A DNA stretch of 64,000 nucleotides from an uncultured Acidobacteriota bacterium (GTDB lineage: Bacteria; Acidobacteriota; Thermoanaerobaculia; UBA5066; Gp7-AA6). Below, piece after piece: positions 37,253-59,179 of this stretch (positions are counted from its first letter, which is position 1; each line of letters starts with the position of its first letter). The translations under genes and the position numbers were made by a program. The DNA is taken from positions 14,675 through 78,674 of the forward strand of contig CAWDSI010000034.1 of NCBI GenBank assembly GCA_963804915.1, in the 5' to 3' direction. The notes under the pieces are model-generated. The model was given only the letters and a program-made list of their open reading frames with translations, was not told where the DNA came from and ran no database searches.

Positions 37253-37360
37253 GTGTTCGTGGAGCGCTCTTCGCCGAACTGATTCACCGGCAACTCCGGC
37301 GGCACGAGAGGGGCGGCACGGCGGTCGCCGGCCGCGGGGCGATTCTGTATGCTTGGCGCA

Positions 37361-37427
37361 GACTCTTAGCGGCCCGCTCCGCGGGCCAACCGACGAGAGA
37401 GGGGACGTCGCTCTTGCACCCTCTCCC
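37361..37427 (+). promoter_or_regulatory. Conserved structured kinase-leader motif, copy 1 (before K4)
   Basis: GACTCTTAGC GGCCCGC-TCC-GCGGGCC AAC CGACG A GAGAGGG...CGTCG...CCCTCTCCC, 13 nt before ATG 37441; -10-like TATGCT at 37348. Confidence 0.7.
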
Positions 37428-37440
37428 GAGTGTGAGTGAG

Positions 37441-40129
37441 ATGCCGCTTTCCGCCGGGACACGCCTCGGTCCCTACGAGATCCTCTCGCCGCTCGGCGCG
37501 GGAGGGATGGGCGAGGTCTACCGGGCGCGCGATCCCAAGCTGAACCGGGACCTCGCGATCAAAGTCCTTCCCGAGGCGGTCGCGGAGGACCCCGAGCGGC
37601 TGGCGCGGTTCCAGCGGGAAGCCCAGCTTCTGGCCGCGCTCAACCATCCGCACATCGGCGCGATCTACGGGCTCGTGGAATCCGACGGGCGTCGAAGCTC
37701 TCGTGCTCGAGCTCGTCGAAGGGGAGACGCTCGCCGAGAGGCTCGCGGTCGGGGCGATGCCGATCGACGAGGCTCTGGCCGTCGCCCGGCAGATCGGCGA
37801 CGCGCTCGAGGCGGCGCACGAGAAGGGCATCGTCCACCGGGACCTGAAGCCCGCGAACGTCAAATTGACGCCCGGCGGATCGGTCAAGGTCCTCGACTTC
37901 GGTCTCGCGAAGGCGTTGTCGACCGACGCGTCGGCGCCCGACGTGACGCGCTCACCCACCATCACCGCCGCGGCGACGCAGGCCGGCGTGGTGCTCGGTA
38001 CGGCGGCGTACATGTCGCCGGAGCAGGCGCGCGGAAGGCCGGTCGACAAGCGATCCGACATCTGGTCGTTCGGGGTCGTGCTGTACGAGATGCTGACGGG
38101 CACGCGCTGCTTCGAGGGCGAGACCGTCTCGGACGTGCTCGCCGCCGTGCTGCGGCAGGAGCCGGACTGGTCGAAGCTGCCTCCGGACACGCCGCCCCAG
38201 GTTCGCGCGCTCCTCGGCCGCTGTCTCGAGCGCGATCCGAAGAAGCGGCTGCGCGACATCGGCGACGCGTGGTTGGAGGGCGGCGCCGCGCCGCCCGTTC
38301 CGGTCGAGCGAAAAGCCCCGGCGTCGCGATGGCCCTGGGTCGCCACGGTGTTCGTCGCGCTCGCGGCGCTCGCGCTCGGATTCGCGGCGGCCCGCTGGCT
38401 CGCGAGACCCGCGCCGGCAGCGAAGGCCGCCGCCATCCACTCGGTCGTCCCGCTCCCTCCCGGCACGCGTCTCTCCGGCTGGGCCTCGCCGATCGTCGCG
38501 ATCTCGCGCGACGGCCGCACGCTCGCCTTCGTCGCCGAAAAGGAAGGGGAGCCGCAGAGACTGTACGTGCACCGTCTCGACCGGGACGATACGCGCGTGG
38601 TGCCCGACAGCGCCTCGGCCGAAGGCCCGTTCTTCTCTCCGGACGGGCAGTGGGTCGGCTTTGCGACGAACGTGTCGCAGGTATCCCGCACGGGCAGCGG
38701 AGATCTGAGGAAGTACTCCCTGGCGACGGGCCTCACGCAGAAGATCGCCGACATCCCGGACTTCTTCGGCGCGAACTGGTCGATCGACGGGACGATCGTC
38801 GTCGCCGTTTCGACCACGGAGGGCGTGTGGCGCTTCCCGCCCGGAGGCGGACCGCCCGACACCTCGGCGCAGACGATCGCTCGTGGACGGCAAGCCTGTC
38901 CGGCGCCGGCTCTGGTGGCCGCAGTGGATGACGTCCATCGGGCGTGCTCGTCACGGACGAGGGCGACACGAGCTGGGGAGGCGCGGCGGTGCTCGGACTT
39001 CCCGCTCGGACGTTGTCGAGTATCGAGAAGGACGTGCTCTTCTCGCGGTACGCGTCCAACGGATGCCTGCTCATGTCTCGCCGCGACCGCACGCTCTTCT
39101 CGGCTCCGTTCGATGCGCGGACGCTGCGCGCGAGCGGTCCTCCCGTCGCCGTGCTGCGCGAGGTCGCGTTCGGCTGCAACGGCGCGGCGGCGATGGCCGT
39201 CTCCGAGAACGGAACCCTGGTCTACGCGAGCGGCTACGTCCGAGGCAGCGGAATGGACCTCTCGCGTATGGCGCGCATCGGGTCGAAGGGCGAAGTCGAG
39301 ATGCTGCCCTTCGACGCGGGATTCGTTCGGCCGCGTGCCCATGCCGTCGCCGGACGGCCGCTCTCTCGCCGTGATCACGTCCGACGGAGCGGTGTGGGTC
39401 TACGATCTGGCCCGCCGGATCCGCAGGGCCCTTCCGCTCGGGAAGCGCCGCTCCCAGGGCTACGCCGTCTCCTGGTCCCCCGATGGGCGCAGCATCGCGT
39501 ACTCGGCGTCGTCCGAAGGGAGTCAGGGCTGGGGCATCTATCGGCAGCCTGCGGACGGCAGCGGCGCCCCCGAGGAGCTCGTGCCTCCCGGCGAGGAGGC
39601 CTACGCCCTGGCGTTTGCTCCGGACGGGTCGTCATTCGTGTCCGCGGAATTCGCGGCGCACCCGAGTCTCTCGCGCCGATCCCTGAATGGAAAGAACGAA
39701 GCCGCGAAGATCGTCGACGGCCTGGTCGCTGGAGCAAGCTTTTCACCGGACGGGCGATGGCTCGCCTACGACCTGCAGGTGTCCGACGGGTGGCAGGTCC
39801 TGATGATGCCCGTATCCGGCGACGGGCCTCGCGTGCCGCTCGCGTCGGGCGCCCGATTCCCTCGCTGGTCGCCGGATGGGCGAAGCGTCTATTGCCGACA
39901 GGGAGACGCGCTCATACGGATACCGATCCCCGCAGGCGACCACCCCGAGCCCGGCGCGCCCGAGGTGCTACTCAAGATGCCGATGCGCGGCTACTCCGTC
40001 GCGCCCGACGGCAAGGGATTCTTCGCGGTCGTCGATGCGGACGACTCCGGCATCGTGAAGGAGCTCCACCTCGTGACGAACTGGTTCTCGGAGCTCGAAG
40101 CCCTCACGTCGCCACCGCCGGCGAAGTAG
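37441..40129 (+). CDS. K4: Ser/Thr kinase - TM - TolB/PD40 beta-propeller; frameshifts near 37695, 38900-38940 and 39325
   Basis: [32 protein letters not shown]; SPDG repeats; ends LVTNWFSELEAL. Confidence 0.9.
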
Positions 40130-40687
40130 TCAGTTTCCGGCGGCCGCGTTCTTCGCGCCGGGGGGCGGCGGATACTCGGCGAGGAGCTCGGAGACCGCCT
40201 TGTTGATGTCGCGTCGGAGCGCGTCGGGATTCGTGCCGAGCAGCGCCGACTTGAGCCCGCGCCAGATGAGCTTGCGCTCGGAGTCGCGGATGTTGATCCA
40301 GAGCGTGCCCCCCTGGCGGTACTTCGTGCTCGTGTCGTACAGGCCGCTCCACCAGACGTACCCGCTGACGCGTTCCTGGGACGAGGCGCCTTCCGCCCGC
40401 GTCGAGTAGGAGATGTAGATGTCGGGCGTGGCGCCGGCGGCCGCGGGCTGGACGCCTTTCTTCTTGAGGTTCTCGTCGATGGCCCTCCGAATGTTCTCGT
40501 CGATGAATTGCCCGTCGACGACCGCCCCGCCGCCGGGCATCTTGAAGTCCGGATCGTCGTACCACGCGTACGTCGTCGGGGGCGTGAAGCGAAAGTTCGG
40601 ATCGAAAGCATAGTCGTACGTCGGCTTTCCGGCGCAGCCGACCAGGAAGCTCGCGGCGAGCGACAGGGAAACGAGGACTTTTCGCAT
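40130..40687 (-). CDS. DUF4136 family lipoprotein
   Basis: ATG 40687 after AAGGAG; lipobox LVGC; TYAWY, FIDENIRRAIDENL, GTLWINIRD...LIWRG. Confidence 0.75.
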   Translation of the reverse strand: MRKVLVSLSLAASFLVGCAGKPTYDYAFDPNFRFTPPTTYAWYDDPDFKMPGGGAVVDGQFIDENIRRAIDENLKKKGVQPAAAGATPDIYISYSTRAEGASSQERVSGYVWWSGLYDTSTKYRQGGTLWINIRDSERKLIWRGLKSALLGTNPDALRRDINKAVSELLAEYPPPPGAKNAAAGN

Positions 40688-40695
40688 GGGGCTCC

Positions 40696-41254
40696 TTACT
40701 GCGACGGCGTCGATCCGGGCGCCGGCGGGAAATGCGACAGCAGGACGTCGATTTCGTGGCGGATCTCGCGGCCGACCTGCGCCGGGATCTTCTCCTTCGA
40801 GGCGCGTGATCGAGCCCTGCCAGACGAGGGTCTTCGCCGGGTTGTAGATGTCGATGATGATCTGCCTCGACTTCTCGTACATGTCGTTCTCGTAGCCCGT
40901 GAGAACCGCGCGGTTCCAGTCCTTGACCTGGTCGGTCACGCGGGTGTCACCGGTGCCGTAGGAAACGAGCATCGAGGCCTGCGCCGCGTCGACTTTCTGA
41001 AAGCCGCGCTTCCCGAGCGACTCGTCCACCGCCTGCCGGACGGTCCGGTCGATGAACTGCCCGTCGATGATCGAGTCCCCGTGCGGCATCTGGAAGTTCG
41101 GGCCCTCGTACCACGCATACGTTTTCATCCCGGCGAGACTGCTCGTCGCGGCCTGGTCCCAGGCATAGATGGGCGCCGGATGCGTTCCGCGACAGGCAGC
41201 GCGACCAGCGCCGCCGCCGCGATCATCAGAGAGCAGGAGAGCCCGTCGTCTCAT
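40696..41254 (-). CDS. Second DUF4136 family protein; frameshifted
   Basis: KTYAWY, FIDRTVRQAVDESL, IIIDIYNPAKTLVWQG; own TAA at 40696-40698; fused to its neighbour in the ORF track only through indels. Confidence 0.65.
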
Positions 41255-41301
41255 CGTTCCTCCGTCGGGGGTTTCACCGGGACATTACTATAGGCGACTC
41301 A

Positions 41302-41366
41302 GACTCTTGAGCGGCCCGCTTCGCGGGCCGACCGACGAGAGAGGGAAAGTCGCGAGACCCTCTCCC
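41302..41366 (+). promoter_or_regulatory. Conserved structured kinase-leader motif, copy 2 (before K5)
   Basis: GACTCTTGAGC GGCCCGC-TTC-GCGGGCC GAC CGACG A GAGAGGG AAA GTCG CGAGA CCCTCTCCC, 9 nt before ATG 41376; -10-like TACTAT at 41286. Confidence 0.7.
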
Positions 41367-41375
41367 GGAAATGAA

Positions 41376-44046
41376 ATGACGCTGCGCGGAACCAAGCTCG
41401 GTCCGTACGAGATCCTCGCGCCGATCGGCGCGGGAGGGATGGGAGAGGTCTACAAAGCGAAGGACACGCGGCTGGAACGGACAGTCGCGGTGAAAGTCCT
41501 GCCGCAGCATCTGTCCTCTTCCCCGGACGTGCGCCAGCGTTTCGAGCGCGAGGCGAAGACGATCTCGCAGCTCTCGCATCCTCACATCTGCGCGCTCTAC
41601 GACGTCGGGCACGAGGGAGACGTCGAGTACCTCGTCATGGAGCTCCTCGAGGGCGAGACGCTCTCCGATCGGCTCGCGAAGGGAGCGCTGCCGCTCGAGC
41701 AGACGCTCCGGTTCGGGCAGGAGATCGCCGACGCGCTCGAGAAGGCGCACCGGCAGGGGATCGTGCACCGGGATCTGAAGCCCGGCAACGTGATGCTGAC
41801 GAAGTCCGGCGTGAAGCTTCTGGATTTCGGCCTGGCGAAGGAGATCGGCGCGGCGAACCCGACCTCCGGCGCGACGTCCCTGCCGACCGAGCTCGGCACG
41901 GCGCAGAACCTGACGCGAGAAGGGCACGATCCTCGGAACGTTCCAGTACATGTCGCCCGAGCAGCTCGAGGGCAGGGAGGCCGACGGGCGGTCGGACATC
42001 TTCGCCTTCGGCGCCGTGCTCTACGAGATGGCGACGGGCAGGAAGGCGTTCTCGGGTCAGAGCCAGGCCTCGCTCATCTCGGCGATTCTCCGCGACGACC
42101 CGCAGCCGATCTCGCAGATTCAGCCGACCTCGCCGCAAGCGCTCGATCGCGTCGTCCGGACCTGCCTCGCCAAGGATCCCGAGGATCGTTGGCAATCGGC
42201 CGGCGATCTGAAGCGCGAGCTGCGTTGGATCGGCGAAGGATCGCAGAGCGGGGCGGCGATTCCGGCCGCGGCCGTTCCCGCTCCGCGCCGGCGCGGGAGC
42301 GGCCTCGCCTGGGCCGTCGCGGCGGCGGCTCTCGTGGCGGCGATCCTCCTCGCGTTGACCCTCGCGCGCGCGCGCTCCGTCCGACCACCAGCCGTGCACG
42401 CGTTTCTCGACCCGCCTCCGAAAGCCGCGTTCCAGCTCACCGGCGACGAAGGCTCGCCGCCCGCGGTTTCGCCGGACGGATCGAGCGTCGTGTACGGCGC
42501 CGGCGGACGGCTCTGGATCCAGTCGCTGCGCGCGGCGGAGGTCAAGCCGCTCTCGTCGGGAGGAAGCCGGACGGTGGCCCTTCTGGTCCCCCGACAGCCG
42601 GCGCATCGGCTTCTTCTCGGGCGGCAAGCTCAAGGTCGTCGACGCCGCGGGCGGGCCGGTCCAGGCGGTCGCCGATGCTCCCACGCCGCGCGGCGCCTCC
42701 TGGGGGCCCGACGGAACGATCGTGTTCACGCCGGACTTTCGCGGCGGGTTGATGCGCGTTTCGGCCTCCGGCGGCGTGGTCTCGCCGCTGACGACGGTCG
42801 ACATGGCGCGGCACACGACGCACCGCTGGCCGTCCTTCCTGCCCGACGGCAAGAACGTCATCTTTCTGGCGGCCAATCACGGCCGGCCGCGATCGGACGA
42901 GTCCGGTATCTACGTCGTTCCGTTGTCCGGCGGAACACCCAAGCGCCTCCTGACGTCTTACGGCAGTGCGCAGGCCGTGAACGGATGGCTCCTGACTGTG
43001 CGGGAGTCGAGCCTCATGGCCGCGCCGTTCGACGCCGCGCGTCTGGCGGTGACGGGCCCTCCCGTGCAGGCCGCGCCGGAGGTGCAGTTCGACACGGGAA
43101 CCTGGCGCGGCGTCTTCTCCGCGTCGCCCGGGATCCTGGTCTACCAGTATTCGCGAGACGGCGGCGGGGGACAGCTCGGGTGGCACGACGCCCAGGGCCG
43201 GCGCATCGCATCCATCGGCGAGAGAAGCCAGGGCTACGCGCTGCGACTCTCGCCCGACGGAAAAAGGGCTTCGGTGATCGAGGGCGATCCGAACAACGAC
43301 ATCTGGATCTACGAGCTCGAGCGGGGCGTGCGCACCCGGCTGACGAGCGATGCGCAGGTGCTCACGTCCCCGGTTTGGTCTCCGGACGGAACCGAGATCA
43401 TCTTCGTCTCCGCCCAGGCCCCGAGCGGCGGCGACTATCTCCTTCAACGAATTCCGAGCGACGGCTCGGGGGTGGCGCGCACCGTCGCCAAGTCCCCCGA
43501 ACGGATCGAGCCGACCGACTGGTCGCGCGACGGCAAGTACGTCCTGGTCGACCGCGGGCCCATCGGTGCGACGGACATCTGGGTCTATCCCATGGCGAAG
43601 CCCGACGAGCCCTTCCGATTGCTGAAGGCGAGCAAGGCGCTGGACACCTACGGTCAGTTCTCGCCGGACGGCCGTTGGGTCGCGTACGTCTCCCTCGACA
43701 CGGGACGGTTCGAGATCAACGTGACGGCATTCCCCGGCGGCGGCCCGCGCGTTCAGGTCTCCCCGCGCGGCGGCACGCAGGTGCGCTGGGGCCCCGACGG
43801 CAAGACGCTCTACTACGTGTCCACCGAAGATGCGTCCCTCGTCGCGGCCTCGGTGGACGGTTCGGGGGCCCAGTTCCAGGTCAAGGGCGTGACGACTCTG
43901 TTCCCGTGAACGTCTTCCAGGGGCCGCGCGTGACGGGCAGTTTCGACGTCTCCGCCGACGGGCGTTTCCTGATCATCAGCGCGGGCGACGTCTCGGGATC
44001 CCGGGTCGCCGTCGTCTCGAACTGGACCTCCGAGTTGCCGCACTGA
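41376..44046 (+). CDS. K5: Ser/Thr kinase - TM - TolB/PD40 beta-propeller; frameshifts near 41920, 42570 and 43900
   Basis: [28 protein letters not shown]; SPDG repeats; ends VVSNWTSELPH. Confidence 0.9.
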
Positions 44047-44121
44047 TCCCCGCCCGGGGGCCCAAGAAGTTCCTCGCGATCCGCCACGCTCTGCGTCAGA
44101 ATCCCCAACCTAGGAGCCTGA

Positions 44122-46782
44122 ATGACAATTGAAGCGGGGGCCCGCCTCGGGCCTTACGAGATCCTCGCGCCCATCGGGGCGGGAGGAATGGGTGAGGTCT
44201 ATCGCGCGAAGGACACCCGCCTTGGGCGCGAGGTCGCGGTGAAGGTGCTGTCCTCGCATCTTTCGACGAGCGAGGAAATCCGCCAGCGCTTCGAGCGCGA
44301 GGCGAAGACGATTTCGCAGTTCTCGCACCCGCACATCTGCGCGCTCTACGACGTCGGACGGGAGGGCGACACCGACTTCCTCGTGATGGAGCTGCTCGAG
44401 GGCGAGAGCCTCGCGGACCGGCTCGGCAAGGGACCACTCCCGACCGAGCAGCTTCTGCGTTACGGGATCCAGATCGCCGACGCGCTCGACAAGGCCCACC
44501 GGCAGGGGATCGTCCACCGCGACCTGAAGCCCGGCAACGTGATGATCACGAAGACGGGCGTGAAGCTGCTCGACTTCGGACTGGCGAAGCCTCTGATCTC
44601 CGCCGGAGCGCGGCCTGCCTCCGGCGCCTCGGTCCTCGCCGACGGAAGCGCAGGTCAGCGCGCCTCTCACCGAGCGCGGGACGGTCCTCGGGACCTTCCA
44701 GTACATGGCGCCCGAGCAGCTCGAAGGCGGCGAGGCGGACGGGCGCTCCGACATCTTCGCGTTCGGCGCCGTGCTGTACGAAATGGCGACGGGCAAGAAA
44801 GCATTCACGGGCAAGAGCCAGGCCTCTCTGATCGGTTCGATCCTGCGCGACGACCCGCCCTCGATTTCCGAAACGGCGCCGATGATCCCGCCGGCTTTGA
44901 ACCGCGTCGTCAAGACCTGCCTGGCCAAGGATCCCGAGGACCGCTTCCAGACGGCGCACGACGCCAAGCTCCAGCTCGAGTGGATCGACGAGGGCGGCTC
45001 GCAGGCGGGCCTGCCGGCTCCCGTCGTCGCGCGGCGCAAGAACCGCGAGAAGCTCGCGTGGGCCGTGTCTGCGATCGCGATCGCCGCGGCGGGCCTCGCG
45101 TCCTACGGATATCTGCGCCGCGCTCCGAAGCCGCCGCGGACCGTCCGGTTCGAAGTCGCCATCCCTCCAAACGTCATCGCGATCGACACGCCCCGAATCT
45201 CCCCGGACGGCCGGATCCTGGCCTTCAACGCCACCGACTCGGGGGGGCTGACGCGGATCTGGATCCGTCCGCTGAACGCGCTCGCGGCCCAGCCGCTCCC
45301 GGGGACGGAGGGAACCACGCGCCCCTTCTGGTCGCCCGACAGCCGCTTCATCGGTTTCGTCGCAGGGCGGGAAGCTCATGAAGATCGACGTTTCGGGAGG
45401 TCCGCCGACGAAGATCTGCGACGCGCCGACCGGTTCCGACGGCACATGGAGCCCGGAGGGCGTCATCCTCTTCGACGGGACCGGCAACGATCCGATTCAG
45501 CGCGTCTCGGCCGCCGGCGGCACGCCCACCGTCGCCGTCAAGGCCGACAGCCTCGCGAAAAGAGACCCAGATCGGCTGGCCCGAGTTTCTTCCTGACGGC
45601 CGCCACTTCATGTACATGTCGATCAACCAGAAGGTGGATGACAGCGCTTATCGGATCGGCTCGCTCGACTCCTCGGACACGAAGTCGTTCGCGCCCGCGC
45701 AGACGATGCTGACCTACGCTCCGCCGGGCTATCTGCTCTTCGTACGGGACCGGACGCTGGTGGCCCAGCCTTTCGACGCGAAGGCGATGAAGACGACCGG
45801 CGAGCCCGTCCCTCTCGCCGAGCAGATCGGAACCGACGCGGTCGGGCTCGCTCGTTTCTCCGTCTCGCGCGACGGCGTTCTCGCGTACCGCACCGGCGAG
45901 TCGGGGAACCGTCTCGTCTGGGTCGACCGGTCCGGAAAGGAGCTCGACACGCTCGGTGACCCGGGCGAGTACGGCGAGCCCGACCTCTCGCCCTCGGGCG
46001 ACCGGCTCGCATTCGACCTTGTCGACCTCCGCTCGAACAAGTCCGACATATGGATTCGCGACCTCGCGCGCGGCGTGAACTCGCGTTTCACGTTCGCCCC
46101 CGGCAACGCCTTCGCGCCCCTCTGGTCACGCGGAGGCGAGACCATCGTCTTCACGTCGGATCGCGAGGGAGCGCCCGGTCTCTACGAGAAGGCCGCGAGC
46201 GGCCAGGGTGAAGAAAAGCTGCTCCTCAAGGAGGAGGCGCTGGTCATTCCCATCAGCTTCTCCCCCGACGGACGCTTCCTCGCCTACCAGATGCGCAACC
46301 CGAAGACCAGCTGGGACATCATGATCCTGCCCATGACCGGCGAGCGAAAGCCCGTTGCCTTCGCCGCGGCATCGTTCAATGAGAATCAGGGGAAGTTCTC
46401 CCCGGACGGGCGCTTCCTCGCCTACATTTCGAACGAGTCGGGCCGCAACGAGATTTATGTGCAGAGCTATCCCGGCCCAGGCGGAAAGTGGCAGATCTCG
46501 AACGCGGGCGGCACAGACCCCCACTGGCGCGCCGACGGCAAGGAGCTCTACTACCGGAGCCCCGACCAGAAGCTGATGTCGGTCGAAATCCGGGGAGACG
46601 CCTCGGTCGAGGCCGGCATCCCGCAGCCGCTGTTCCTCGGGCGCGTCCACATTGGCACCGCCCGCAACAAGCTCGTGCCGGCGAAGGACGGCCAGCGCTT
46701 CCTCTTCGTCGCGCCGCTCGGCCGCGACGCCATGACGCCCACGACCGTCGTCCTGAACTGGTTCGCGGGACTGGGCAAGTGA
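44122..46782 (+). CDS. K6: Ser/Thr kinase - TM - TolB/PD40 beta-propeller; frameshifts near 44650, 45365 and 45560
   Basis: [17 protein letters not shown]; ends PTTVVLNWFAGLGK. Confidence 0.9.
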
Positions 46783-46816
46783 ACCGTCAGTGGAAAGGAA
46801 CTCGATGAGTCTCGAA
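46702..46816 (+). repeat. Direct repeat A: K6 3' end, spacer and K7 start (partner at 49378-49491)
   Basis: About 115 bp, differing from the partner by about 7 substitutions and 1 indel; includes the AAAGGAA RBS. Confidence 0.85.
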
Positions 46817-49458
46817 CCCGGAACGAGGCTCGGTCCCTACGAGATCTCGGCGCCGATCGGGGCCGGGGGCATGGGCGAGGTCTACCGCGCGAGGGACACG
46901 CGCCTGGGGCGCGACGTTGCCGTGAAGGTCCTGCCGGCGCACATGTCCTCTTCGCCGGAGCTGCGCCAGAGGCTCGAGCGCGAGGCGAAGACGATCTCGC
47001 AGCTCTCGCATCCGCACATCTGCATGCTCCACGACGTCGGTCACCAGAACGGGACCGACTACCTGGTCATGGAGTTTCTGGAGGGCGAGACGCTCGCGGA
47101 TCGGCTGGCGAAGGGGGCGTTGCCCGTCGAGCAGGCGCTTCGGATCGGGACCGAGATCGCCGGAGCGCTGGACGCGGCGCATCGGAGCGGGATCGTGCAT
47201 CGGGACCTGAAGCCCGGCAACATCATGCTGACGAAGACGGGCGTGAAGCTCCTCGACTTCGGCCTGGCGAAGCTCGCGGCGCCGACGACGCCCGTGTCGC
47301 AGGCGACGAGCCTGCCGACCGCTCTGCAGGAGAGCCAGCCGCTCACGAGCCGGGGGACGATCCTCGGGACGTTCCAGTACATGTCGCCCGAGCAGCTCGA
47401 GGGAAAAGACGCCGACGCGCGCAGCGACATCTTCGCCTTCGGCTGCGTCCTCTACGAGATGCTGACGGGCCGGAAAGCGTTCACGGGAAAGAGCCAGGCC
47501 TCGCTGATCGGCTCGATCATGAATACCGAGCCCCCGCCCATCTCAACGATTCAGCCGATGACGCCTCCGGCGCTGGACCGCGTCGTCAAGGGATGTCTCG
47601 CGAAGGAGCCCGAGCATCGCTGGAGCACCGCGCACGACGTGATGCTCCAGCTCCAGTGGGTCGCGGAGGGAGGGTCGGCCGCGGGGCTTCCGGCGCCCGT
47701 CGCCGCACGACGCAGGAGCCGCGAAAAGCTGGCCTGGGGCGTCGCCGCCGCGCTTCTGCTCGCCGTCGCGGCGCTCGCCTACGGTTTCATTCGCCGGGCG
47801 CCGAAGCCACTGCGCGTCGTTCGATTCGAGGTCGCCAATCCGCCGGCCATCACCACGATCGACGCTCCGAAAATCTCCCCGGACGGAAAGACGCTCGCCT
47901 TCAATGCGACGGATTCGGGAGGCAAGACTCAGATCTGGCTCCGGCCGCTCAACGCGCTCACGGCGCAGCCCCTGCCCGGAACCGAGGGAACGCGCCGCCC
48001 CTTCTGGTCTCCCGACAGTCGCTATCTGGCGTTCATCGCGGACGGCAAGCTCAAGAAAATCGACGTCACCGGAGGTCCACCCACCAAGATCTGCGACGCG
48101 CCGACCGGAGTCGACGGGAGCTGGAGTCCCGAAGGCGTCATCCTCTTCGACGGCACGGGCACGGATCCGATCTACCGGGTCCCGGCCGCGGGCGGAACGC
48201 CGGTCGTCGCCGTGAAGGCCGATCCGGAGCACAAGGAGATCCAGGTCGGATGGCCCGAGTTTCTCCCCGACGGCCGCCAGTACATTTACATGGTCATCAA
48301 TCAGAAGGCCGAGCTGAACTCGTACCGCATCGGCTCGCTCGATTCGAAAGAGACGAAGCCGTTCGCGCCCGCGCAGATCATGCTGGTCTACGCCCCCCAG
48401 GGCTACCTCCTGTTCTTGAAGGACCGGACGCTCATGGCGCAGCCGTTCGACGCGAAGGCGATCAAGACGACGGGAGAATCCGGTTCCCATCGCGGAGCAG
48501 ATCGGCACCGACGCGGTCGGGCTGGCGCGCTTCTCGGTCTCGCGCGACGGCGTGCTCGCATACCGGACGGGAGAATCGGGTAACCGCATGCTCTGGATGG
48601 ATCGGTCGGGGAAAGAGCTCGACACCCTCGGCGACCCGGCGGAGTACGAGGATCCGGATTTTTCCCCGGCGGGCGACCTGCTCGCGTTCGACCTCACCGA
48701 CACGCGTTCCGGCAAGTCGGACATCTGGATCCGCGATCTTTCGCGAGGCGTCAACTCGCGATTCACCTTCGGCCCGGACAATTCTTTCGCTCCCGTATGG
48801 TCGCGGCGCGGCGACGCGATCGTCTACGCCTCGGATCGGGACGGGGCGTTCGCCATCTACCAGAAAGCGACGAGCGGGAACGGGGAGGAGAAGCTTCTGG
48901 TCAAGTCGGACGCGCTCCTCGTTCCCATGAGCTTTTCTCCCGACGGCCGTTTCCTCGCGTATCAACGCCAGGACCGCAAGACGAACTGGGATGTCCTGCT
49001 CCTTCCTCTGACCGGCGAGGAGAAGCCGGTCACGTTCCGCGCCACTCGCTTCCGCGACGTCCAACCGAGGTTCTCACCCGACGGCCGCTTCATCGCGTAT
49101 GCCGTCAAATGAGTCGGGCCGCAACGAGGTCTACGTGCAGAGCTATCCCGGGCCCGGACGGACGTGGCAGATCTCGACGTCCGGTGGAACCGACCCGCAA
49201 TGGCGCCGGGACGGAAAGGAGCTCTACTACCGCGGCCTCGACCAGAAACTCATGGCCGTCGACATCCGGGGCGGCGACGCGCTCGAGCCGGGCCTCCCGC
49301 AGGCGCTGTTCCAGGCTCGAGTCTCGATCGGTCTGCGGAGCACGAAATACCTTCCGGACCAGACAGGGCAGAAGTTTCTCTTCGTCGCGCCGCTCGGCCG
49401 CGATGCCATGACGCCCACGACCGTCGTCCTGAACTGGTTTGCGGGACTGGGAAAGTAA
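46805..49458 (+). CDS. K7: Ser/Thr kinase - TM - TolB/PD40 beta-propeller; frameshifts near 48480 and 49100
   Basis: ATG 46805 after AAAGGAA; [19 protein letters not shown]; ends PTTVVLNWFAGLGK. Confidence 0.92.
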
Positions 49459-49491
49459 ACCGTCGTTGAAAGGAACTCAATGAGTCTCGAA
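49378..49491 (+). repeat. Direct repeat B: K7 3' end, spacer and K8 start
   Basis: Partner of 46702-46816. Confidence 0.85.
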
Positions 49492-52132
49492 GCCGGAACG
49501 AAGCTCGGTCCCTATGAGATCTCGGCGCCTGTCGGCGCCGGAGGGATGGGAGAGGTTTACCGGGCGAAGGACACGCGGCTGGGCCGCGACGTCGCCGTCA
49601 AGGTGCTGCCCGCGCACCTGTCGGCGAGCGCGGAGCTGCGGCAGCGGCTCGAGCGCGAGGCGAAGACGATTTCGTCGCTCTCGCATCCGCACATCTGCAT
49701 GCTCCACGACGTCGGCCACCAGAACGGGACCGACTACCTCGTCATGGAGTTCCTGGAGGGCGAGACGCTGGCGGATCGGCTGGCCAAGGGCGCGCTGCCG
49801 ATGGAGCAGGCGCTGAAGATCGGCATCGAGACCGCGGGCGCTCTCGACGCCGCGCACAAGAGCGGCATCGTCCACCGCGACCTGAAGCCCGGCAACATCA
49901 TGCTGACGAAGTCGGGCGTGAAGCTGCTCGACTTCGGCCTGGCGAAGCTCGCGACTCCGGACAAGCAGCGCCGTCTCGCAGGCGACGAGCATGCCGACGG
50001 CGCTGCAGCAGAGCCAGCCGCTGACGTCCCGCGGAACGATCCTCGGGACCTTCCAGTACATGGCGCCCGAGCAGCTCGAGGGCGGCGAGGCCGACGCGCG
50101 CAGCGACATCTTCGCGTTCGGCTGCGTCCTCTACGAGATGCTGACGGGCCAGAAGGCGTTCACCGGCAAGAGCCAGGCGAGCCTGATCTCCTCGATCATG
50201 GGCTCGGACCCGCCGCCGATCTCCTCGATCCAGCCGATGATCCCGGCCTCTCTCGATCGGATCGTCAAGGGATGCATCGCGAAGGAGCCCGAACAGCGCT
50301 GGTCGACCGCGCACGACGTGATGCTGCAATTGCAGTGGATCGCGGAGGGCGGCTCGATGGCGGGAGTGCCGGCGCCGGTCGTCGCGCGGCGGAAGAACCG
50401 CGAGAAGCTGTCATGGGCGGTCGCGGCGGCCGCGCTTCTCGCGGCGGCCGTCTTTGCGTGGGGCTTCGTAGGCCGGGCGCCGGTGCCGCCGCCGCTCGTC
50501 CGCTTCGAGATCCCCGTGCCCTCGGACGTCACGTCGATCGACGTACCGCGCATCTCGCCCAACGGGAAGATCCTCGCGTTCGACGCGACCGATGTGACCG
50601 GGAAGAACCGGATCTGGATCCGCCCTCTGAACGCGCTCGTCGCTCAGCCGCTGGCCGGCACCGAGGGAGGGGCCCGTCCCTTCTGGTCGCCAGACAGCAA
50701 GTACGTCGGCTTCGTCGCCGACGGCATCATGAAGAAGGTCGACGTGACGGGCGGTCCCCCGACCAAGATCTGCGACGCACCCGGTGCGTCCGACGGAAGC
50801 TGGAGCCCCGAAGGCGTCATCCTCTTCGACGGCACCGGCACCGATCCGATCTATCGGGTCCCGGCCAGCGGAGGTGCGCGCACGCCGTGGGTCGAGCTCG
50901 ATGCCGCCCGCAAGGAAACGTCGGTCGGATGGCCGGAGTTTCTTCCCGACGGCAAACACTTTCTCTTCATGGCCAGCGGCGAGAAGTCGGAGGAAACGGC
51001 CTACTGGGTCGGCACGATCGACTCGAAGGAGCGCCGCAAACTCGCGCCCGCCCAGACGCTCGTCACCTACGCGCCGGGGTACCTGCTTTTCGTCCGCGAC
51101 CGCACGCTCGTCGCCCAGCCGTTCGATGCGAAGGCACTGAAGACGCTGGGCGAGCCGACGCCGCTGGCCGAGCAGATCGGCACCGACGCCGCCGGCCTGG
51201 CGCGATTCTCGGTGTCCCGGAACGGCGTGCTGGCGTATCGCACGGGCGAGACGGGCGGGCGGCTGCTGTGGCGCGACCGCTCGGGGAAGGAACTGGAATC
51301 CCTCGGGGGATCCGCCTCCTATGGCAACCCCGTGCTCTCGCCCTCCGGCGATCGGATCGCCTTCGGCATCGTCGATGCCCGAAGCGCCAAGACGGACATC
51401 TGGGTGCGCGACGTCGCCCGAGGGGTCAATTCACGGTTGAGTCTCGGGGCCGGAAACAACTTCCGGCCGGTCTGGTCGGCCGACGGCGAGAAGATCTTCT
51501 TCACGACCGACCGTGAAGGCACCCTCGACCTGTGGGAGAAGGCAACGCGAGGCCAGGGCGTCGAGAAGGTCCTGTTCAAGAACGAGGAGATCAAGTACGC
51601 GGCGAGCGTCAGCCCCGACGGCCGCTATCTCGCATACGCCGCGCAGAACCCGAAAACAGGGTGGGACCTCTGGGTGCTGCCGACCTTTGGCGACCGCAAG
51701 CCGATCCCGGTCGCCGTTTCGACGTTTCAGGAGAACACCCCGATGTTCTCTCCGGACGGGAAGTTGATCGCGTTCGTGTCGGAAGAGTCCGGCCGCCCCG
51801 AGATCTACGTCCAGACCTTTCCGGACGGAACCGGCAAATGGCAGGTCTCCAACGGCGGCGGCATCGATCCCAGCTGGCGGCGCGACGGTAAGGAGCTGTA
51901 CTACCGCGCCCCGGACCAGAAGCTCATGGCGGTCGATATTCGGACCGTGGGCGACTTCCAGGCCGGCATTCCGCAGCCGCTCTTTTCGGTCGCCGTCCGG
52001 ACGGGCAACGCCCGAAACAAATACATGCCGTCGGCCGACGGCCAGCGGTTCCTCTTCGACGCGCCTCTCGGCCGCGAGGCCTTGAGCCCGACGACGATGG
52101 TGCTCAACTGGACCTCCAGCCTCGGGAAGTAG
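49480..52132 (+). CDS. K8: Ser/Thr kinase - TM - TolB/PD40 beta-propeller; frameshift near 49965
   Basis: ORFs 49480..51516 (kinase N-part) and 49991..52132; ends MVLNWTSSLGK. Confidence 0.92.
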
Positions 52133-52137
52133 GCCCG

Positions 52138-54464
52138 TTGACCGCAACCGCGGAGCGCCGCTGGGGACTCGCGGCCGTGACAGCGGTGCTCGGATGCTTC
52201 GCCCTGCTGGCCGTGCGATCGTCCGCGGCTCCCGAACCGCGTGTGGGCTCGCTCCTGCTCGTCGCGGCCGCCCTGGAGTTGTTCCACGGCTTCCGGCGCT
52301 CGAGCGAGGCGGGCCAGCGCGAGGCCTGGACGGGCGGCCTGATCACGCTCCTGATGGGACTCCTGCTTCTGAATGCTCCGGACCTGGCGTCCGGGGCGCT
52401 GGTCGTCTTCTTCGGCGGCGGGTTCGCGCTCGACGGAATCCGGCACGCGAAACACGCGCTCGGCGCGCGAAAGGCTGGTCGCCCGTTCACCGCGCATGCG
52501 TGGGCGGCCGTCGGCAACTTCGCTCTCGCGGCGCTGCTCGCGGTGCTCGGCGGATGGGCGCCGGACTGGATGGTTCCGATCGCTGGCGCGCTCCGCATCT
52601 TCGGGACGGCCTGGGGCATCGCGATGGCTCCGGTCTTCGATGCGGCCGACGCAGGAGACACGGTGGTTCGCGACCTCGGCCTCGAAGATCGGCCCGAAAT
52701 CGCGGCGCTCGCGGAGCGGCTCGAGGACGAGGAGGCCCACCGCGCGCCGATCGACCGGCACTGGATCTTCGTGCTGATCCTCACGCTCTTCGCGATCCAC
52801 CTCGGGCGAATGGGATTCGACCGCACGGCCCTCGGCATCCTGGCGCCGGGTGTCGCCGTGCTCGGCGATCTGTTCGTCGGGCTCGTCGTGGGATTCCTCA
52901 TCGTGCTGCCGGGGCGCCTGGCCTTGCTTCGGCTGACCGGCCCGCTCGCTCGGCGCGCCGCGGACTGGCGCGCGGCGGCGAAGCCCTCCTGGCGGTCGCG
53001 TCTGGTGGATCGCTGGCTGACCCGTCGGCTTCGCGCCAACATTCGCATGCGCGACGCGCGCTACTCTTTTGCCGCCGCCGCCTCGCGCAGTCTGCGGGTC
53101 GGCCTGCCGGTGGCGGCGGTCTTCGCGGCCACGATCCCGGTCTGGGGCATGAGCTGGTATTTCGACACGGAGAACTGGGCGTCCGGCGTCTGGGACTCCT
53201 GGGCCGAGGAGCGTACCGATGTGTGGCGCGCGGCGATGACCTCCGCGACGGCCGAAGGCGAGCGCGCCGCGGGGCGGCCGGCGGACTTCGCCGTGGCGCC
53301 GGCCGGGACCGGGAAAGACTTCGCGTTCGTGGTCGTCGGCGACACCGGAGAGGGCGACGCGTCGCAGCATGTGCTCCGCCGCTCGCTGCTCCGCGCCACC
53401 GCGCAGCCCGAAGTGAAGTTCCTCATCGTCTCTTCCGACGTCGTCTATCCCTCGGGCGAGATGAAGGACTACGAGCGCAAGTTCTGGCTGCCCTTCATGG
53501 GAGTCGAGAAGCCGGTCTACGCGATTCCGGGCAACCACGACTGGTACGACGCGCTCGACGGCTTTGCCGTGACCTTCTTCACGCCCGAGGCCGCGCGGCG
53601 AGCGCTCCGGGCACGCGCCGAAGTCCGACCACCACCTGACGACGACCACCGACGCCGAGGCGGACGCGCTCGTCGCCGAGGCAGCGCGGCTGCGTGCGGC
53701 GTACGGCGTTCCGACCGGACTTCAGCAGGCGCCCTATTTCCAGATCCAGACTCCGGACTTCGCCCTGATCGCCGTCGACACCGGCATTCGCCGCGCGGTC
53801 GATGCGGCGCAGCTCGCCTGGCTGCAAATCGGCGCTCGACGCCTCGCGCGGCAAGTTCACGATGGCGCTTCTCGGTCATCCTTTCTACGCCGTCGGCGCG
53901 TACCAGGGCGCCAACAGGGAGGAATTCGACGCGCTGCACCGCCTGCTGCGTGAGCACGGGGTGCCTCTGGTCATGGCGGGCGACACGCACGATCTCGAGT
54001 ACTACCGGGAGCCGGGCGCTTCAGGTCGCGCGACCATGCACCACGTGGTGAACGGCGGAGGCGGCGCCTATCTGAGCCTGGGCACCGCCCTCGCGAAGCC
54101 TGAAAGCATGCCCACGCGGGAGTGGGCGTTCTATCCCTCGACCGCGCCCATCGTCGAAAAGGTCGTGACCAACAATCCGTCGTGGAAGCGCCCGGTCTGG
54201 TTGTGGGCCAGCCGCCTCGGCGGATGGCCGTGGTCGTCCGAGTGGCTCTCGGCCGCGTTCGACTACAACGTCGCACCCTTCTTCCAGAGCTTCGTCGAGG
54301 TCCGTGTCGAGCCCTCGGCCGGCCGCGTTCGGCTCCTGCCGTGGGGCGTTCACGGTCGCCTGCGCTGGTCCGACCTTCAGACCTCCGACGGGTTGCGTCC
54401 CGAGGGGGTCGCGCCGGACGCGCCGGTCGAGTGGACCCTGCCGCTCGGAGCGCCGGCGCGCTGA
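52138..54464 (+). CDS. Multi-TM membrane protein with a C-terminal calcineurin-like metallophosphoesterase domain; frameshifts near 53630 and 53830
   Basis: About 350 aa of hydrophobic helices, then [25 protein letters not shown] and AGDTH motifs. Confidence 0.78.
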
Positions 54465-54471
54465 GGCCTCG

Positions 54472-55809
54472 ATGACGCGAGCCCCTGGGCCGCCGCGCCG
54501 CTTTCCGGGAGGCCACCTTCTCGCGATGCGGCGCGATCCGCTCGCCTTCCTGACCCGGCTCTCGCGCGAGTACGGAGACGTCGTCCGGTTCCGGCTCGGT
54601 CCGGTCGAGATTCACCTGCTCAACCGGCCCGACTTCATCCGCGACCTTCTCGTGACGGACGCGGCGGCGTTCCACAAGGGACGCGGTCTCGAGCGCGCAA
54701 AGCGGCTCCTCGGCGAAGGGCTCCTGACGAGCGAGGATCCGGTGCATCTTCGCCAGCGGCGGATGATCCAGCCCGCGTTCCACCACGAGCGCATCGCGGG
54801 TTACGGCGAAGTCATGGTCGAGCCTGCGGAGCGGCTCTCGGGCCGCTGGCAGGACGGCGAGACCCGGGAGGTGTCGCTCGAGATGTCCCGGCTCACGCTG
54901 TCGATCGTCGGACGGGCGCTTTTCGACGCCGACGTCGAATCGGAAGCCGACGAGATCGGGGCCGCCCTCACGACGGCGGTCACGCTTTTCGGTCGGACCG
55001 TCACGCTGCCGTACTTCCACATCCTCGACCGCTTGCCGATTCCCTCCAACCGGCGCTTCGAGAAAGCGAAGGCGCGCATCGACGCGACGATCGCCCGGAT
55101 GATCGCCGAACGGCGGCGAGCGCCGGCCGGGCGCTCGGATCTGTTGAGCCTTCTCATCGCGGCCTCGGATCCCGAGGGAGACGGCGGGAAGATGACCGAC
55201 GCGCAAGTGCGCGACGAGGCGGTCACGATCTTTCTCGCCGGCCACGAGACCACGGCCAACGCGCTGACCTGGACCTGGTACCTGCTGTCGCAAAATCCCG
55301 ACGTCGAGGCGAAGCTCCACGGCGAGGTCGACGCGGTTCTGGGAGATCGATCGCCCGGCGTCGCGGATCTTCCGAAGCTCGCGTACACGGAGATGGTGCT
55401 CGCGGAGTCGATGCGCCTCTACCCGCCGGCCTGGATCATCGGACGGCGGGCGCTCTCCGACTACGAGGTCGGCGGCTACGCAGTGCCCAAGCGTTCGATC
55501 GTCGTCGCGAGCCAGTGGGTGACTCACCGTGACCCGCGGTACTTCCCGGATCCGGAGCGCTTCGATCCCGAGCGCTTCCGGCCGGAGGCGAAGGCCGCTC
55601 GTCCGAAGTTCTCCTATTTCCCGTTCGGCGGCGGCCCGCGGGTGTGCATCGGAGAGGGCTTCGCCTGGATGGAGGGTGTCCTGCTCCTCGCGACGCTGGC
55701 CCGGCGCTGGCGACTGCGCCTCGAGCCCGGGCAGGTCGTTGCCCCGGCCCCCTCCATCACGCTCCGCCCAAAGCGTGGCCTGCGGATGACCCTCAGTCGG
55801 AGGCCCTAG
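54472..55809 (+). CDS. Cytochrome P450
   Basis: AGHETT, ESMR (ExxR), PERF, heme-binding [12 protein letters not shown]. Confidence 0.96.
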
Positions 55810-55853
55810 GCAGGGGCCACGATGTATCCTTTGCGCGCCATTCGATTCCTTAA

Positions 55854-58436
55854 ATGAGCCTGACGCCCGGCACCCGGCTGGGTCCCTACGAGATCCTCGC
55901 GCCGATCGGCGCTGGAGGGATGGGGGAGGTCTACCGGGCGAAGGATCCGCGACTTGGGCGCGACGTCGCGATCAAGGTCCTGCCGGCGACCTTTTCGCAG
56001 GACGCGGAGCGGCTGCGCCGCTTCGAGCAGGAGGCTCGGGCCGCGGGCGTCCTGAACCACCCCAACATCACCGCCGTGTACGACATCGGCACTCACGAGG
56101 GCGCTCCGTACGTCGTCCAGGAGCTGCTCGAAGGCGACACACTGCGCTCGGTTCTCTCGGGCGGGCGTCTCCCGCAGCGCAAGACGATCGACTACGCCCT
56201 CCAGATCGTCCACGGTCTGGCGGCGGCGCACGAGAAGGGGATCGTGCACCGGGACCTGAAGCCCGAGAACGTCTTCGTGACGAACGACGGCCGGGTGAAG
56301 ATCCTCGACTTCGGCCTCGCCAAGCTGACCCACACGGAGGAGCGCGGCCAGGCGACCAACCTGCCGACCGCGACCGCGGGCACGGAGCCCGGCGTCGTCA
56401 TGGGAACGCTCGGTTACATGTCGCCCGAGCAGGTGCGCGGCAAACCGGCCGACGCGCGCTCCGACATCTTCTCCTTCGGGGCAATCCTGTACGAGATGCT
56501 GTCCGGCAGGCGCGCGTTCCACGGCGACTCGGCGGCGGACACGATGTCGGCGATCCTCAAGGAGGATCCGCCGGATCTCTCCATCACCAACCAGAACATC
56601 CCTCCCGGCCTCGAGCGGATCGTTCGGCACTGTCTCGAAAAGAGCCCCGAGCAGCGCTTCCATTCCGCGCACGATGTCGCTTTCGATCTGGAAGCCCTGT
56701 CGGGCCTCTCCATGCCCCGGATCGAGCCCTCGAAGTCGCGTATTCCCGTCCGACTTCCCTCGCGCCTGGTGGCGGCGGCCGTCCTCGCGGCCCTCGCGGT
56801 CGGGCTTTTCGCCGGCCGCTTGATCTGGAGCGCGGGTCCTGGGTTCTCTCCGAGCTTCCACAGACTGACATTTCGCCGCGGGCCGGTCCAGAGCGCGCGC
56901 TTTGCCCCCGACGGAAGCACGGTCATCTATACCGCCGCCTGGGACGGCGCTCCGAAGCCGGAGCTCTACTCGGTTCGCGTGGAGAGCCCCGAGTCCATGC
57001 GGCTCAGCCTCCCGAATCGATTGATCGAGGCGATCTCCCGTACGGGCGAGATGCTCGTGCTGGACCCGCTCCCCTCAGGGGTGGGGTACTCCATCACCGG
57101 CACTCTTTCGCAGGCGCCTCTGTCGGGCAGCGCGTCGCGAGAGTTGCTCGAGGATGTCGGAAGCGCCGATTGGTCCCCGGACGGAGCGAGTCTCGCCGTC
57201 GTACGCGCGCCCCAGTTCCGCTACCGACTCGAGTTTCCCGCCGGCAAGGTCCTCTACGAGACGACCGGCTGGATCAGCCACCCGCGCGTCTCTCCGAAGG
57301 GAGACGCCGTCGCGTTTCTGGACCACCCGGTCCTCGGCGACGACCGCGGCTCGGTCGCAATCGTAGACCTCGCAGGAAAGAAAAGGACGCTGTCCGAGGG
57401 ATGGGAAAGCGCACAGGGCCTGGCCTGGTCGGTCTCCGGCAAGGAGATCTGGTTCACGGCGACCCGCGCCGGCAACGCCCGCTCTGTCTACGCCGTGACG
57501 CCCGCGCGCCGCGAGCGCGCCGTGCTCGCGACGCCTGCAGGACTGGTGCTCCAGGACATTTCCCGCGACGGGCGCGTCCTCCTGGTCCAGGACAACGCGC
57601 GTGTCGGGTTCTACGCCGTGCTGTCCGGCGAAGCCAGGGAGCGGGACCTCTCGGGTCTCGAATGGTCGTGGGGCCCGCGCCTGTCCGCGGACGAGAAGTC
57701 GGTCGTCTTTACGGAAATGGGGGAGGCCGGCCTCGCGGGTTATTCCGTCTACATGCGCAAGCTCGACGGGTCGGCGGCAGTGCGGCTGGGAGAGGGAGCC
57801 GCGGTGGCGGCCTCGCCCGACGGGAAGTGGATCTTGACCCGCCGCATCCGAACGACACCGGCGACGTTCGTGCTGCTGCCGACCGGCGCCGGGCAGCCGA
57901 AGGCCTTCCCGAAAGACTCGATCGACCGGTCCGGCTTCGCGGCGTTCCTTCCCGACGGAAAGCGCATCGCGTTCAACGGCAACGAGGCGGGAAAGCCCAC
58001 ACGCGTTTTCGTCCAGAGTCTCGACGGAGGCTCGGCGCGGCCCGTCACCCCGGAGGGAGTCACCGCCAGGCTAATCTCGCCGGACGGCAAGTTCCTGCTG
58101 ACCGAGACGGCAGGGCAGGGGTTCGGCCTGGCACCCCTGGACGGCGGCGGCCCCCCGGTACCGATTCGCGGTCTCGAGCCGAGCGACGACCCGCTGCGAT
58201 GGACCGCCGACGGCCGTTCGCTTTTCATCCGCAGCTCGAAAGACTTTTTCCCCGCGCGAGTCTACCGACTGGATCTCGAGACGGGCCGCCGCGAGGTTTG
58301 GAAAGAGTTCATGCCCAGCGACCCAACCGGTATCACCGGCATGGGCCCCAATTCGATCTCCGCGGACGGCAACACCATCCTCTTCGGCTACAGCCACACC
58401 CTGAGCGATCTGTACGTCGCGGACGGCCTTCGGTGA
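55854..58436 (+). CDS. K9: Ser/Thr kinase - TM - TolB/PD40 beta-propeller, intact 860 aa
   Basis: [34 protein letters not shown]; FHRLTFRRG propeller entry; SPDG repeats. Confidence 0.95.
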
Positions 58437-58549
58437 GTCTCTCCTCGGGAACGAAGCTCGGTCTCGGACTCTCAGCGGCCCGCTGCGCGGGCCAACCGAC
58501 GAGAGAGGGGAAATCGGGTGTGCACCCTCTCCCAGGGCATTCGAGATGA
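58433..58549 (+). pseudogene. Kinase N-terminal stub ([10 protein letters not shown]) running into the leader motif; 38-codon uORF
   Basis: GTG overlaps the K9 stop. The first 10 codons match the kinase-start consensus (K12 [11 protein letters not shown]8 MSLEAGTKLG). The frame ends at TGA 58547-58549, overlapping the K10 ATG. Confidence 0.7.
58467..58533 (+). promoter_or_regulatory. Conserved structured kinase-leader motif, copy 3 (before K10)
   Basis: GACTCTCAGC GGCCCGC-TGC-GCGGGCC AAC CGACG A GAGAGGGG AAA TCGG GTGTGCA CCCTCTCCC, 12 nt before ATG 58546. Confidence 0.7.
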
Positions 58550-59153: not shown

Positions 59154-59179
59154 GACGTACCGCCAGAAAGCCTTCTGAC

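Follow-up and report, generated by a model that had tools for sequence, protein, structure and literature searches.

A probable new family of small structured interspersed repeats in a soil genus of Thermoanaerobaculia, with a subset of copies ahead of PD40 Ser/Thr kinase genes

Introduction

Small non-coding repeats in transcribed intergenic regions, with copy numbers that vary widely among related species, are known from enterobacteria as enterobacterial repetitive intergenic consensus (ERIC) sequences or intergenic repeat units (IRU) (PMC2229807). ERICs are transcribed together with the genes on either side, and the folded RNA is believed to change how stable the upstream transcript is, in a way that depends on ribosomes (PMC2229807). 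Here, we describe an element that shares this placement and this variation in copy number, and that occurs three times, each time read on the + strand, in a 64,000-nt stretch of DNA (the window) from an uncultured Acidobacteriota bacterium of the class Thermoanaerobaculia (assembly GCA_963804915.1, contig CAWDSI010000034.1, positions 14,675 to 78,674 of the forward strand). Positions given without a contig refer to the whole 64-kb window. An original prediction, made from the sequence, had taken the element for the structured leader of three kinase genes, either a cis-regulatory RNA for part of this kinase family or the end of a small mobile or recombination module. In the best-supported interpretation of our analysis, the element represents a new family of interspersed repeats, small and structured, that proliferates and is restricted to one genus.

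Several described systems resemble this element. ERIC is an imperfect palindrome of approximately 127 bp whose ends pair, whereas the present element does not pair at its ends and folds into two separate hairpins, both internal. It also belongs to another phylum and has no sequence similarity to ERIC, for which strict abutment to stop codons is undescribed. With the repetitive extragenic palindromes (REP) and bacterial interspersed mosaic elements (BIME), it shares GC-rich hairpins at the 3' ends of genes and mosaic or nested composites. Liang, Rudd and Deutscher reportedly found in 2015 that a REP no more than about 15 nt from a stop codon interferes with ribosomes as they terminate. In contrast to REP/BIME, the present unit is 72 to 85 nt long, combines two unlike hairpins with conserved single-stranded segments, and shows no correlation with REP-associated tyrosine transposases (RAYT); its copies are single and in one orientation, whereas REP/BIME occur in inverted pairs. 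The mycobacterial interspersed repetitive units (MIRU) are located in the intercistronic spacers of operons, oriented with transcription, and contain frames that overlap the flanking stop and start codons. A similar arrangement was observed at six loci of the present element, where an upstream open reading frame (uORF) runs through the repeat to an RTGA overlap at the next start. However, MIRUs are tandem 40- to 100-bp units without strong hairpins, while the present element is a single structured unit whose read-through frame is found only in a subset with kinase stubs.

The attC sites of integron cassettes are also imperfect hairpin repeats in co-oriented arrays; they too follow a stop codon immediately, and the next promoterless ORF begins a short distance beyond them. 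The third window copy together with its gene looks like an inserted unit, as in integron cassettes. Unlike attC, the present element lacks R''/R' core sites (no GTTRRRY) and its ends do not pair; unlike integron arrays, its copies are dispersed singly behind housekeeping genes and tRNA, with no integrase context seen. Bacterial miniature inverted-repeat transposable elements (MITEs), such as Correia/NEMIS, RUP, and Nezha, share with it a non-autonomous, multicopy, lineage-restricted, insertion-polymorphic, and often co-transcribed nature (PMC2229807, PMC3184786). The terminal inverted repeats (TIRs) and target-site duplications (TSDs) that define MITEs were not found in the present element, nor was a parent insertion sequence (IS). 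Overall, the element has a lifestyle like that of ERIC, REP/BIME, MIRU, and MITE elements and the defining features of none of them.

Results

Genus-restricted distribution and insertion polymorphism

The genome that contains the window is a metagenome-assembled genome (MAG) of 5.17 Mb in 39 contigs, with 68% GC and 81% completeness. A covariance model built from 23 copies, used on this genome together with nhmmer, identified 25 copies on 14 contigs, whose neighbors include hslU, tsf/pyrH, mdh, and leuS-like genes and a tRNA. When the covariance model was applied to 40 relatives, genuine matches were observed only in the same Thermoanaerobaculia genus, with 0 to 70 copies per genome; all genomes compared are MAGs, and these counts vary with assembly quality. 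Other families of the order gave only marginal matches (E of about 1e-3). When 185,579 species genomes were scanned for the exact pattern, it was found at 73 loci, every one of them in a MAG of Acidobacteriota/Thermoanaerobaculia. A limited literature search on repeats in Thermoanaerobaculia found no repeat family described for this clade.

The joined flanks of 13 own-genome copies were compared by BLAST with 30 congeners, and many matches spanned the junction, corresponding to orthologous empty sites. As seen in the alignments, the copy upstream of mdh is missing from at least 8 species, the closest ones included, and the hslU copy is filled in approximately 14 species and empty in approximately 15. 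Other copies (tsf-pyrH, C22:114662, and that of contig C35) were filled only in the nearest relative. For the three window copies no orthologous empty sites were found, and only the kinase N-termini had matches in other genomes; a clean empty site was likewise lacking for the tRNA-adjacent copy, since species differ in the sequence that follows the tRNA. With its filled and empty orthologous sites and its 0 to 70 copies per genome, the element behaves much as the original prediction had pictured it in its second option, the end of a small mobile or recombination module.

Composition of the unit and the three window copies

The unit is non-coding, with a core of approximately 72 nt, or approximately 85 nt including a loose GAAAY tail. 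It consists, in this order, of a 5' arm (CTCGGACTCTGAGC) that holds TGA/TAG triplets, a first hairpin (P1), a GC hairpin of 7 to 8 bp with a triloop, a linker, and a second hairpin (P2) of 7 to 9 bp, GAGAGGG/CCCTCTC, the loop of which starts with the invariant sequence GGGGAAGUCGC. Two main subfamilies were recognized. Subfamily A has the P1 GGCCCGC/GCGGGCC and the linker RACCGACGR, and subfamily B has the P1 GGUCCGC/GCGGACC and the linker GUGGAAAU, while GAGAGGGGAAGUCGC ... CCUCUCCC is common to both.

The three window copies exist as originally described. The 33-nt core GGCCCGC-NNN-GCGGGCC-R-ACCGACGAGAGAGGG is exact at 37371, 41313, and 58477 and had no match in 100 dinucleotide shuffles; the stems are identical, and the variation is confined to the P1 loop (TCC/TTC/TGC) and to the P2 loop and linker. 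Copy 1 (37357 to 37427, + strand), matched by the covariance model at C34:52023-52108 with 87.9 bits, has the 5' arm CGCAGACTCTTAGC, a P1 formed by GGCCCGC (37371-37377) and GCGGGCC (37381-37387), and a P2 formed by GAGAGGG (37397-37403) and CCCTCTC (37419-37425), followed by a kinase ATG at 37441. Copy 2 (41298 to 41366, + strand) lies in a divergent intergenic region, with a DUF4136 gene upstream on the - strand and a kinase ATG at 41376, and copy 3 (58463 to 58533, + strand) is separated by a 12-nt spacer from the ATG of a truncated kinase, K10, at 58546. Measured from CCCTCTCCC, the ATG lies 13, 9, and 12 nt away in copies 1, 2, and 3, respectively. The 5' boundary of the unit is CTCGGA/CGCAGA/CTCAGA, four bases ahead of the GACTCT at which the motif had originally been started, and homology among the three loci starts exactly at this 5' end. 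A fourth copy on the same contig was observed 4.3 kb past the end of the window (C34:82964-83049); an ATG follows it after 15 nt, at the edge of the contig.

No Rfam family matched the element in the window at the gathering threshold. When copy 1 and 20 own-genome copies were scanned at permissive E-values, only a tRNA and chance-level matches appeared, none of them overlapping the element. The hexamers TATGCT and TACTAT, originally noted as TANNNT boxes, are indeed located upstream of copies 1 and 2; however, a sigma-70 consensus scan found no promoter there.

Two conserved hairpins and an unsupported pseudoknot

In 88 distinct copies, P1 was 94% and P2 85% paired, and 10 base pairs had changes on both sides; none of 500 shuffles reached the observed values. 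Among the orthologous copies at the hslU site, P1 also varies by paired changes (CGCGCCGC, CGGCGCGC, and CGGCCCGC, with matching 3' arms). As judged from these alignments, both hairpins are maintained, partly through apparently compensatory changes. That the structure belongs to the given strand is indicated by the G-U pairs in P2, while folding energy picked neither, both strands folding about equally (z of -1.1 to -2.9). A complement to the CCGACG segment (CGTCG, GTCG, or TCGG), from which an H-type pseudoknot had been proposed, is present in each window copy. Nevertheless, this CGAC:GTCG pairing was rejected across 97 members of the family, since the 3' partner GTCG is invariant and the 5' partner is altered in approximately 35% of them without compensation.

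Nested and mosaic copies also occur. Two segments of the own genome, C12:74300-77350 and C33:23650-26800, which contain hslU and a lipoprotein gene, are 94 to 95% identical over more than 3 kb, reflecting either strain heterogeneity or a large duplication in the MAG. The C33 segment differs by an extra 46-nt half-element (arm, P1, and linker) after GAGAGGGGAA, and the same nesting position recurs at G001:C9:63640-63783 and at locus L181. In a further subset, a second module of approximately 55 nt (hairpin GCCGUCC-UGCG-GGACGGC, then UCUCCUACUGCCGAGGGUCUGCCUUUGGU) is located inside the P1 loop, yielding a mosaic variant C that was observed in the own genome at C14:66782-66830 (- strand), C11:145860-145905, and C3:312450-312497 and at loci L159, L163, L166, and L172; this module looks like a further repeat, one that is aimed at the hairpin loop. 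At L097:6520-6545, the 5' hexamer CTCGGA is present in tandem triplicate (GACTCGGACTCGGACTCGGACC), directly 3' of a terminator T-tract.

Copies directly follow the ends of genes

The gene contexts of 110 copies were assigned with crude codon-bias gene calls made for the analysis. In tandem contexts, 59 copies were co-oriented and 9 anti-oriented with the genes (p = 4e-10), and 19 and 9 copies were located in convergent and divergent regions, respectively. Half of the co-oriented upstream genes (39 of 78) end 0 to 6 nt ahead of the element. In 58% of the copies, the 9 nt that precede the element contain a stop triplet, compared with 8% for the genome background, and TAG is over-represented among these triplets. 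Some copies begin 1 nt after the CCA end of a tRNA, and at least five begin 0 to 4 nt after the T-tract of a canonical hairpin terminator; the -10 box of the next gene is often found 40 to 60 nt beyond the element. At two loci the element supplies the stop codon, as indicated by the HslU protein, which ends in RYVL* in genomes with the empty site and in RYVLL* in the own genome, with the stop inside the element, and by C22:114662, where the original TGA is displaced downstream of the insert. These placements correspond to those of a 3'-untranslated-region (3'-UTR) or intercistronic element and not of a leader.

Such a position would also suit a host signal that has multiplied at gene ends, acting at the DNA or RNA level as a terminator without a U-tract or as a site for a nucleoid or regulatory protein. 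Many loci are indeed located between a stop codon and the -10 box of the next gene, where terminators sit, and P1 is a perfect 7-3-7 palindrome. We consider this explanation very unlikely, since no T/U tract follows P1 or P2 in the consensus, the terminator scan at the window copies was negative, and the copies that directly follow a canonical terminator stand where no other is needed. In addition, the P1 bases covary and are not fixed, which argues against sequence-specific protein binding, and the orthologous empty sites have no equivalent signal.

Ends, targets, and candidate mobilizing enzymes

The consensus alignment shows no complementarity between CTCGGACTCT at the 5' end and CCCTCTCCC at the 3' end. 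P1 and P2, both internal, were the only hairpins found. The filled-versus-empty alignments revealed no target-site duplication, and k-mers of 3 to 8 nt common to both flanks of 59 unique copies were no commoner than in shuffled pairings. The flank logo gave only a G at -2 and a purine at -1, with at most 0.25 bits at other flank positions. A BLAST search of the flanks against the own genome for a larger parent element returned only kinase paralogy and the C12/C33 duplicate. As to integron core sites (RYYYAAC ... GTTRRRY), the consensus contains no GTT.

Candidate enzymes showed no relationship with copy number. The Y1 transposase domain (Y1_Tnp, PF01797) was absent from G000, G001, G016, and G022, which have 25, 28, 10, and 70 copies of the repeat, and it was present in low-copy genomes, including five in G007, which has 1 copy. 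The IS110-type DEDD transposase (PF01548) was found in 7 of 31 genomes, unrelated to copy number, with none in G000, G002, G015, and G022, and reverse transcriptase (PF00078) in only 1 of the 31 (G011, with 1 repeat copy). Therefore, by their defining features, a MITE and a REP/RAYT element or IS200/IS605 derivative were both rejected, the former for want of TIR, TSD, and parent IS and the latter on account of the copy number unlinked to Y1 and the missing 4- to 5-nt target.

Among these candidates, a REP/REPIN moved by RAYT, or a palindrome-associated derivative of IS200/IS605 moving as single-stranded DNA (ssDNA) through a Y1 transposase, deserves a separate comment, since such movement would explain the hairpins, the strand specificity, and the lack of TIR and TSD. 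The subterminal hairpins, the stems that tolerate G-T pairs on one strand, and the strong orientation bias are all in its favor. Yet PF01797 is missing from the high-copy genomes G000, G001, and G022 while the one-copy genome G007 has five, the left end shows only G,R at -2/-1 and no conserved 4- to 5-nt target, inverted doublets are lacking, and the unit is 2 to 3 times longer than a REP. This origin is, in our opinion, extremely unlikely.

A subset of copies precedes PD40 kinase genes

A kinase start of the form M-T-L-S-x-G-x-K/R-L-G-P-Y-E-I was found just downstream of the element in 14 of the 110 copies, usually 12 nt past CCUCUCCC. Such kinases account for 49 of the approximately 4,400 genes of the own genome (1.1%), giving an enrichment of more than tenfold before PD40 Ser/Thr kinase starts (about 13% of copies, genus-wide; binomial p = 3e-11, with copies that are not fully independent). 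In a pattern scan of the 44 genomes of the genus, approximately 27 junctions between repeat and kinase were found, in 15 of the genomes, compared with 0 for a reversed control pattern; many of these junctions sit between tandem kinases. The association is statistically real and secondary to the identity of the element. Only 3 of the 25 own-genome copies precede kinases, and copies occur genome-wide largely without relation to kinases, namely between convergent genes, after tRNA, and after true terminators. As the identity of the element, the proposed cis-regulatory RNA of the kinase family is not supported, and the original prediction as a whole is partly supported.

A dedicated cis-regulatory leader RNA, either riboswitch-like or a protein-binding 5' UTR, could still serve a subset of the PD40 kinases, the other copies being exaptations or decayed relics. 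Besides the enrichment, this explanation is favored by the near-fixed spacer of 12 nt ahead of ATGAC/GTGAC starts, which recurs across 15 genomes and at least 8 lineages of kinases, the invariant P2 loop and conserved stems, the stub uORFs that run through the element into the start codon, and a decayed copy in G023 that still precedes a kinase. Conversely, approximately 87% of the copies are not before kinases, only 3 of approximately 49 own-genome kinases carry the element, and orthologous kinases without it were observed. The 19 copies between convergent genes and those behind tRNA or true terminators also speak against a leader, as do sister species with 0 to 1 copies although the kinase family spans the genus, the lack of a promoter upstream, and the unsupported pseudoknot. 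On balance, a leader RNA seems rather unlikely.

Kinase-start stubs and the third window copy

At six loci (window copy 3, L174, L158, L162, L157, and L179), a stub of a kinase start is located ahead of the element. The stub junction falls exactly after codon 10 (...AAG CUC GGN) at window copy 3, L174, L158, and L162, and after ...UAC GAG AUC/G at L157 and L179. In all six, an open frame of 37 to 50 amino acids runs across the stub and the entire element, and either overlaps the kinase start at its end, as RTGA, or stops 1 nt short of this start. The four codon-10 junctions read CTCGGN-CTCGGA, in which the Leu-Gly codons of the kinase (CUC GGN) resemble the 5' end of the element; this likeness may bear on the formation of the junction. 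At locus L186 (G047:C1:11300-16300), two tandem kinases have near-identical 5' regions, including the 12 nt upstream (51/55), which suggests recent duplication or gene conversion in a kinase array.

At window copy 3, the stub (58433 to 58462, + strand) begins with a GTG that overlaps the TGA stop of the preceding kinase K9. Read through the repeat, it gives a uORF of 38 amino acids (58433-58549, + strand) with an ATGA overlap at the start of K10, a truncated Pkinase gene of 191 amino acids (58546 to 59121, + strand). The start of the next kinase, K11 (59180 to 59209, + strand), shares 26 of 30 positions with the stub, including an uninterrupted identical core of 16 nt, CGGGAACGAAGCTCGG (58446-58461 and 59193-59208), so that an imperfect direct repeat flanks the repeat together with K10. 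The K10 locus is 81% identical to the copy 1 locus over 555 nt, from the first repeat base onward. An in-frame relic after K10 (VTNWTAGLEKK*, approximately 59119-59154) resembles the C-terminus of the copy 1 kinase lineage (..VTNWFSELEAL..), and K10 therefore appears to be an internally deleted full-length kinase. From these sequences, copy 3 looks like the insertion of a repeat-plus-kinase unit into the start of K11.

According to Pfam, the genes downstream of the window copies encode Pkinase plus PD40 beta-propeller proteins. The Pkinase and PD40 gene behind copy 1 (37441 to 40129, + strand) and the Pkinase and beta-propeller gene behind copy 2 (41376 to 43909, + strand) each have at least 2 frame changes in the assembly; these genes are either pseudogenes or the product of paralogue mis-assembly or indel errors in a long-read MAG. 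All three repeat-led kinases of the window thus look broken, K10 being truncated and the other two frame-broken, while the neighboring kinases K9 (55854-58436) and K11 (59180-61855) are intact.

The arrangement at copy 3 allows a bolder interpretation, in which the repeat is the left end of a gene-cassette-like process that builds kinase arrays, with repeat-plus-PD40-kinase units entering the first 3 to 15 codons of resident kinases. The insert would bring a replacement start, the displaced start would remain as the stub, and the stub and repeat would be translated as a uORF feeding the new start through the RTGA overlap; the dispersed copies close to stop codons would be by-products. We consider such a process unlikely, if conceivable.

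Discussion

Taken together, these results make it likely that the element is a proliferating, probably co-transcribed repeat of one soil Thermoanaerobaculia genus, with a secondary link to kinases. We propose that it belongs to the transcripts of its neighboring genes, as a 3'-UTR or an intercistronic spacer, and is tolerated, or used, as an RNA structural module. It might serve as a barrier to 3' exonucleases or as a ribosome-sensitive structure, the latter because the 5' arm and P1 would be unfolded whenever a ribosome occupies the adjacent stop codon; a stabilizing or ribosome-sensitive role of the RNA is plausible but unproven. Rather than by a classical transposase, the spread without target duplication would most likely be brought about by recombination, or by switching of templates, both at short GC hairpins and between paralogues.

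The link to the kinases could be understood in the same terms. The PD40 Ser/Thr kinase genes appear to form tandem, co-oriented arrays, some with stop/start overlaps, that duplicate and recombine, and the repeat would be carried along with kinase 5' ends and occasionally with a whole kinase gene. The association is best accounted for by these tandem, often stop/start-coupled arrays, by recombination within them, and by occasional joint movement of the repeat with a kinase 5' end or gene. Copy 3 would then have arrived as a segment of repeat and kinase placed in the start of the next kinase, and the split start would have left a stub that, read with the repeat as a short uORF, hands ribosomes to the real start.

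Several observations weigh against this picture of a proliferating repeat. The main one is the exact abutment to stop codons and T-tracts, which goes beyond what selection alone would give. No mobilizing enzyme or mechanism was identified among the Y1, IS110-DEDD, and reverse transcriptase genes, and the gene contexts depend on the crude calls described above. As to the structure, the double changes in P1 are mostly one CG<->UA switch that divides the two subfamilies, and hence represent few independent events, and the changes in P2 are mostly one-sided G-U; the conservation of the hairpins fits recognition as ssDNA equally well. A genuine leader function could lie behind the more than tenfold enrichment before kinases and the spacing of 12 nt, which stays constant across several kinase lineages. 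Finally, the similarity between the stub and the start of the kinase after next, which is clear at window copy 3 (26/30), is marginal or negative at the five other loci.

These findings remove a lead toward a kinase riboswitch and add a well-delimited repeat family for an uncultured Acidobacteriota clade. The family goes beyond textbook small repeats in three respects. At its 5' end it adjoins, or takes the place of, stop codons, the ends of tRNAs, and the T-tracts of terminators, with a precision of 0 to 6 nt; it has no TIR, TSD, or recognizable transposase; and it is recurrently tied to a large family of Ser/Thr kinases, at the 5' ends of their genes, with uORFs reading through it. The covariance model can be used to flag copies during MAG annotation, avoiding confusion with regulatory RNAs. 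If a defined mechanism underlies the targeting of stop codons or the cassette-like behavior with kinases, it would have implications for the spread of repeats in the absence of a transposase and for the expansion of bacterial kinase arrays. Were the cassette-like process true, it would constitute an undescribed route to mobilize and translationally wire a family of signaling genes.

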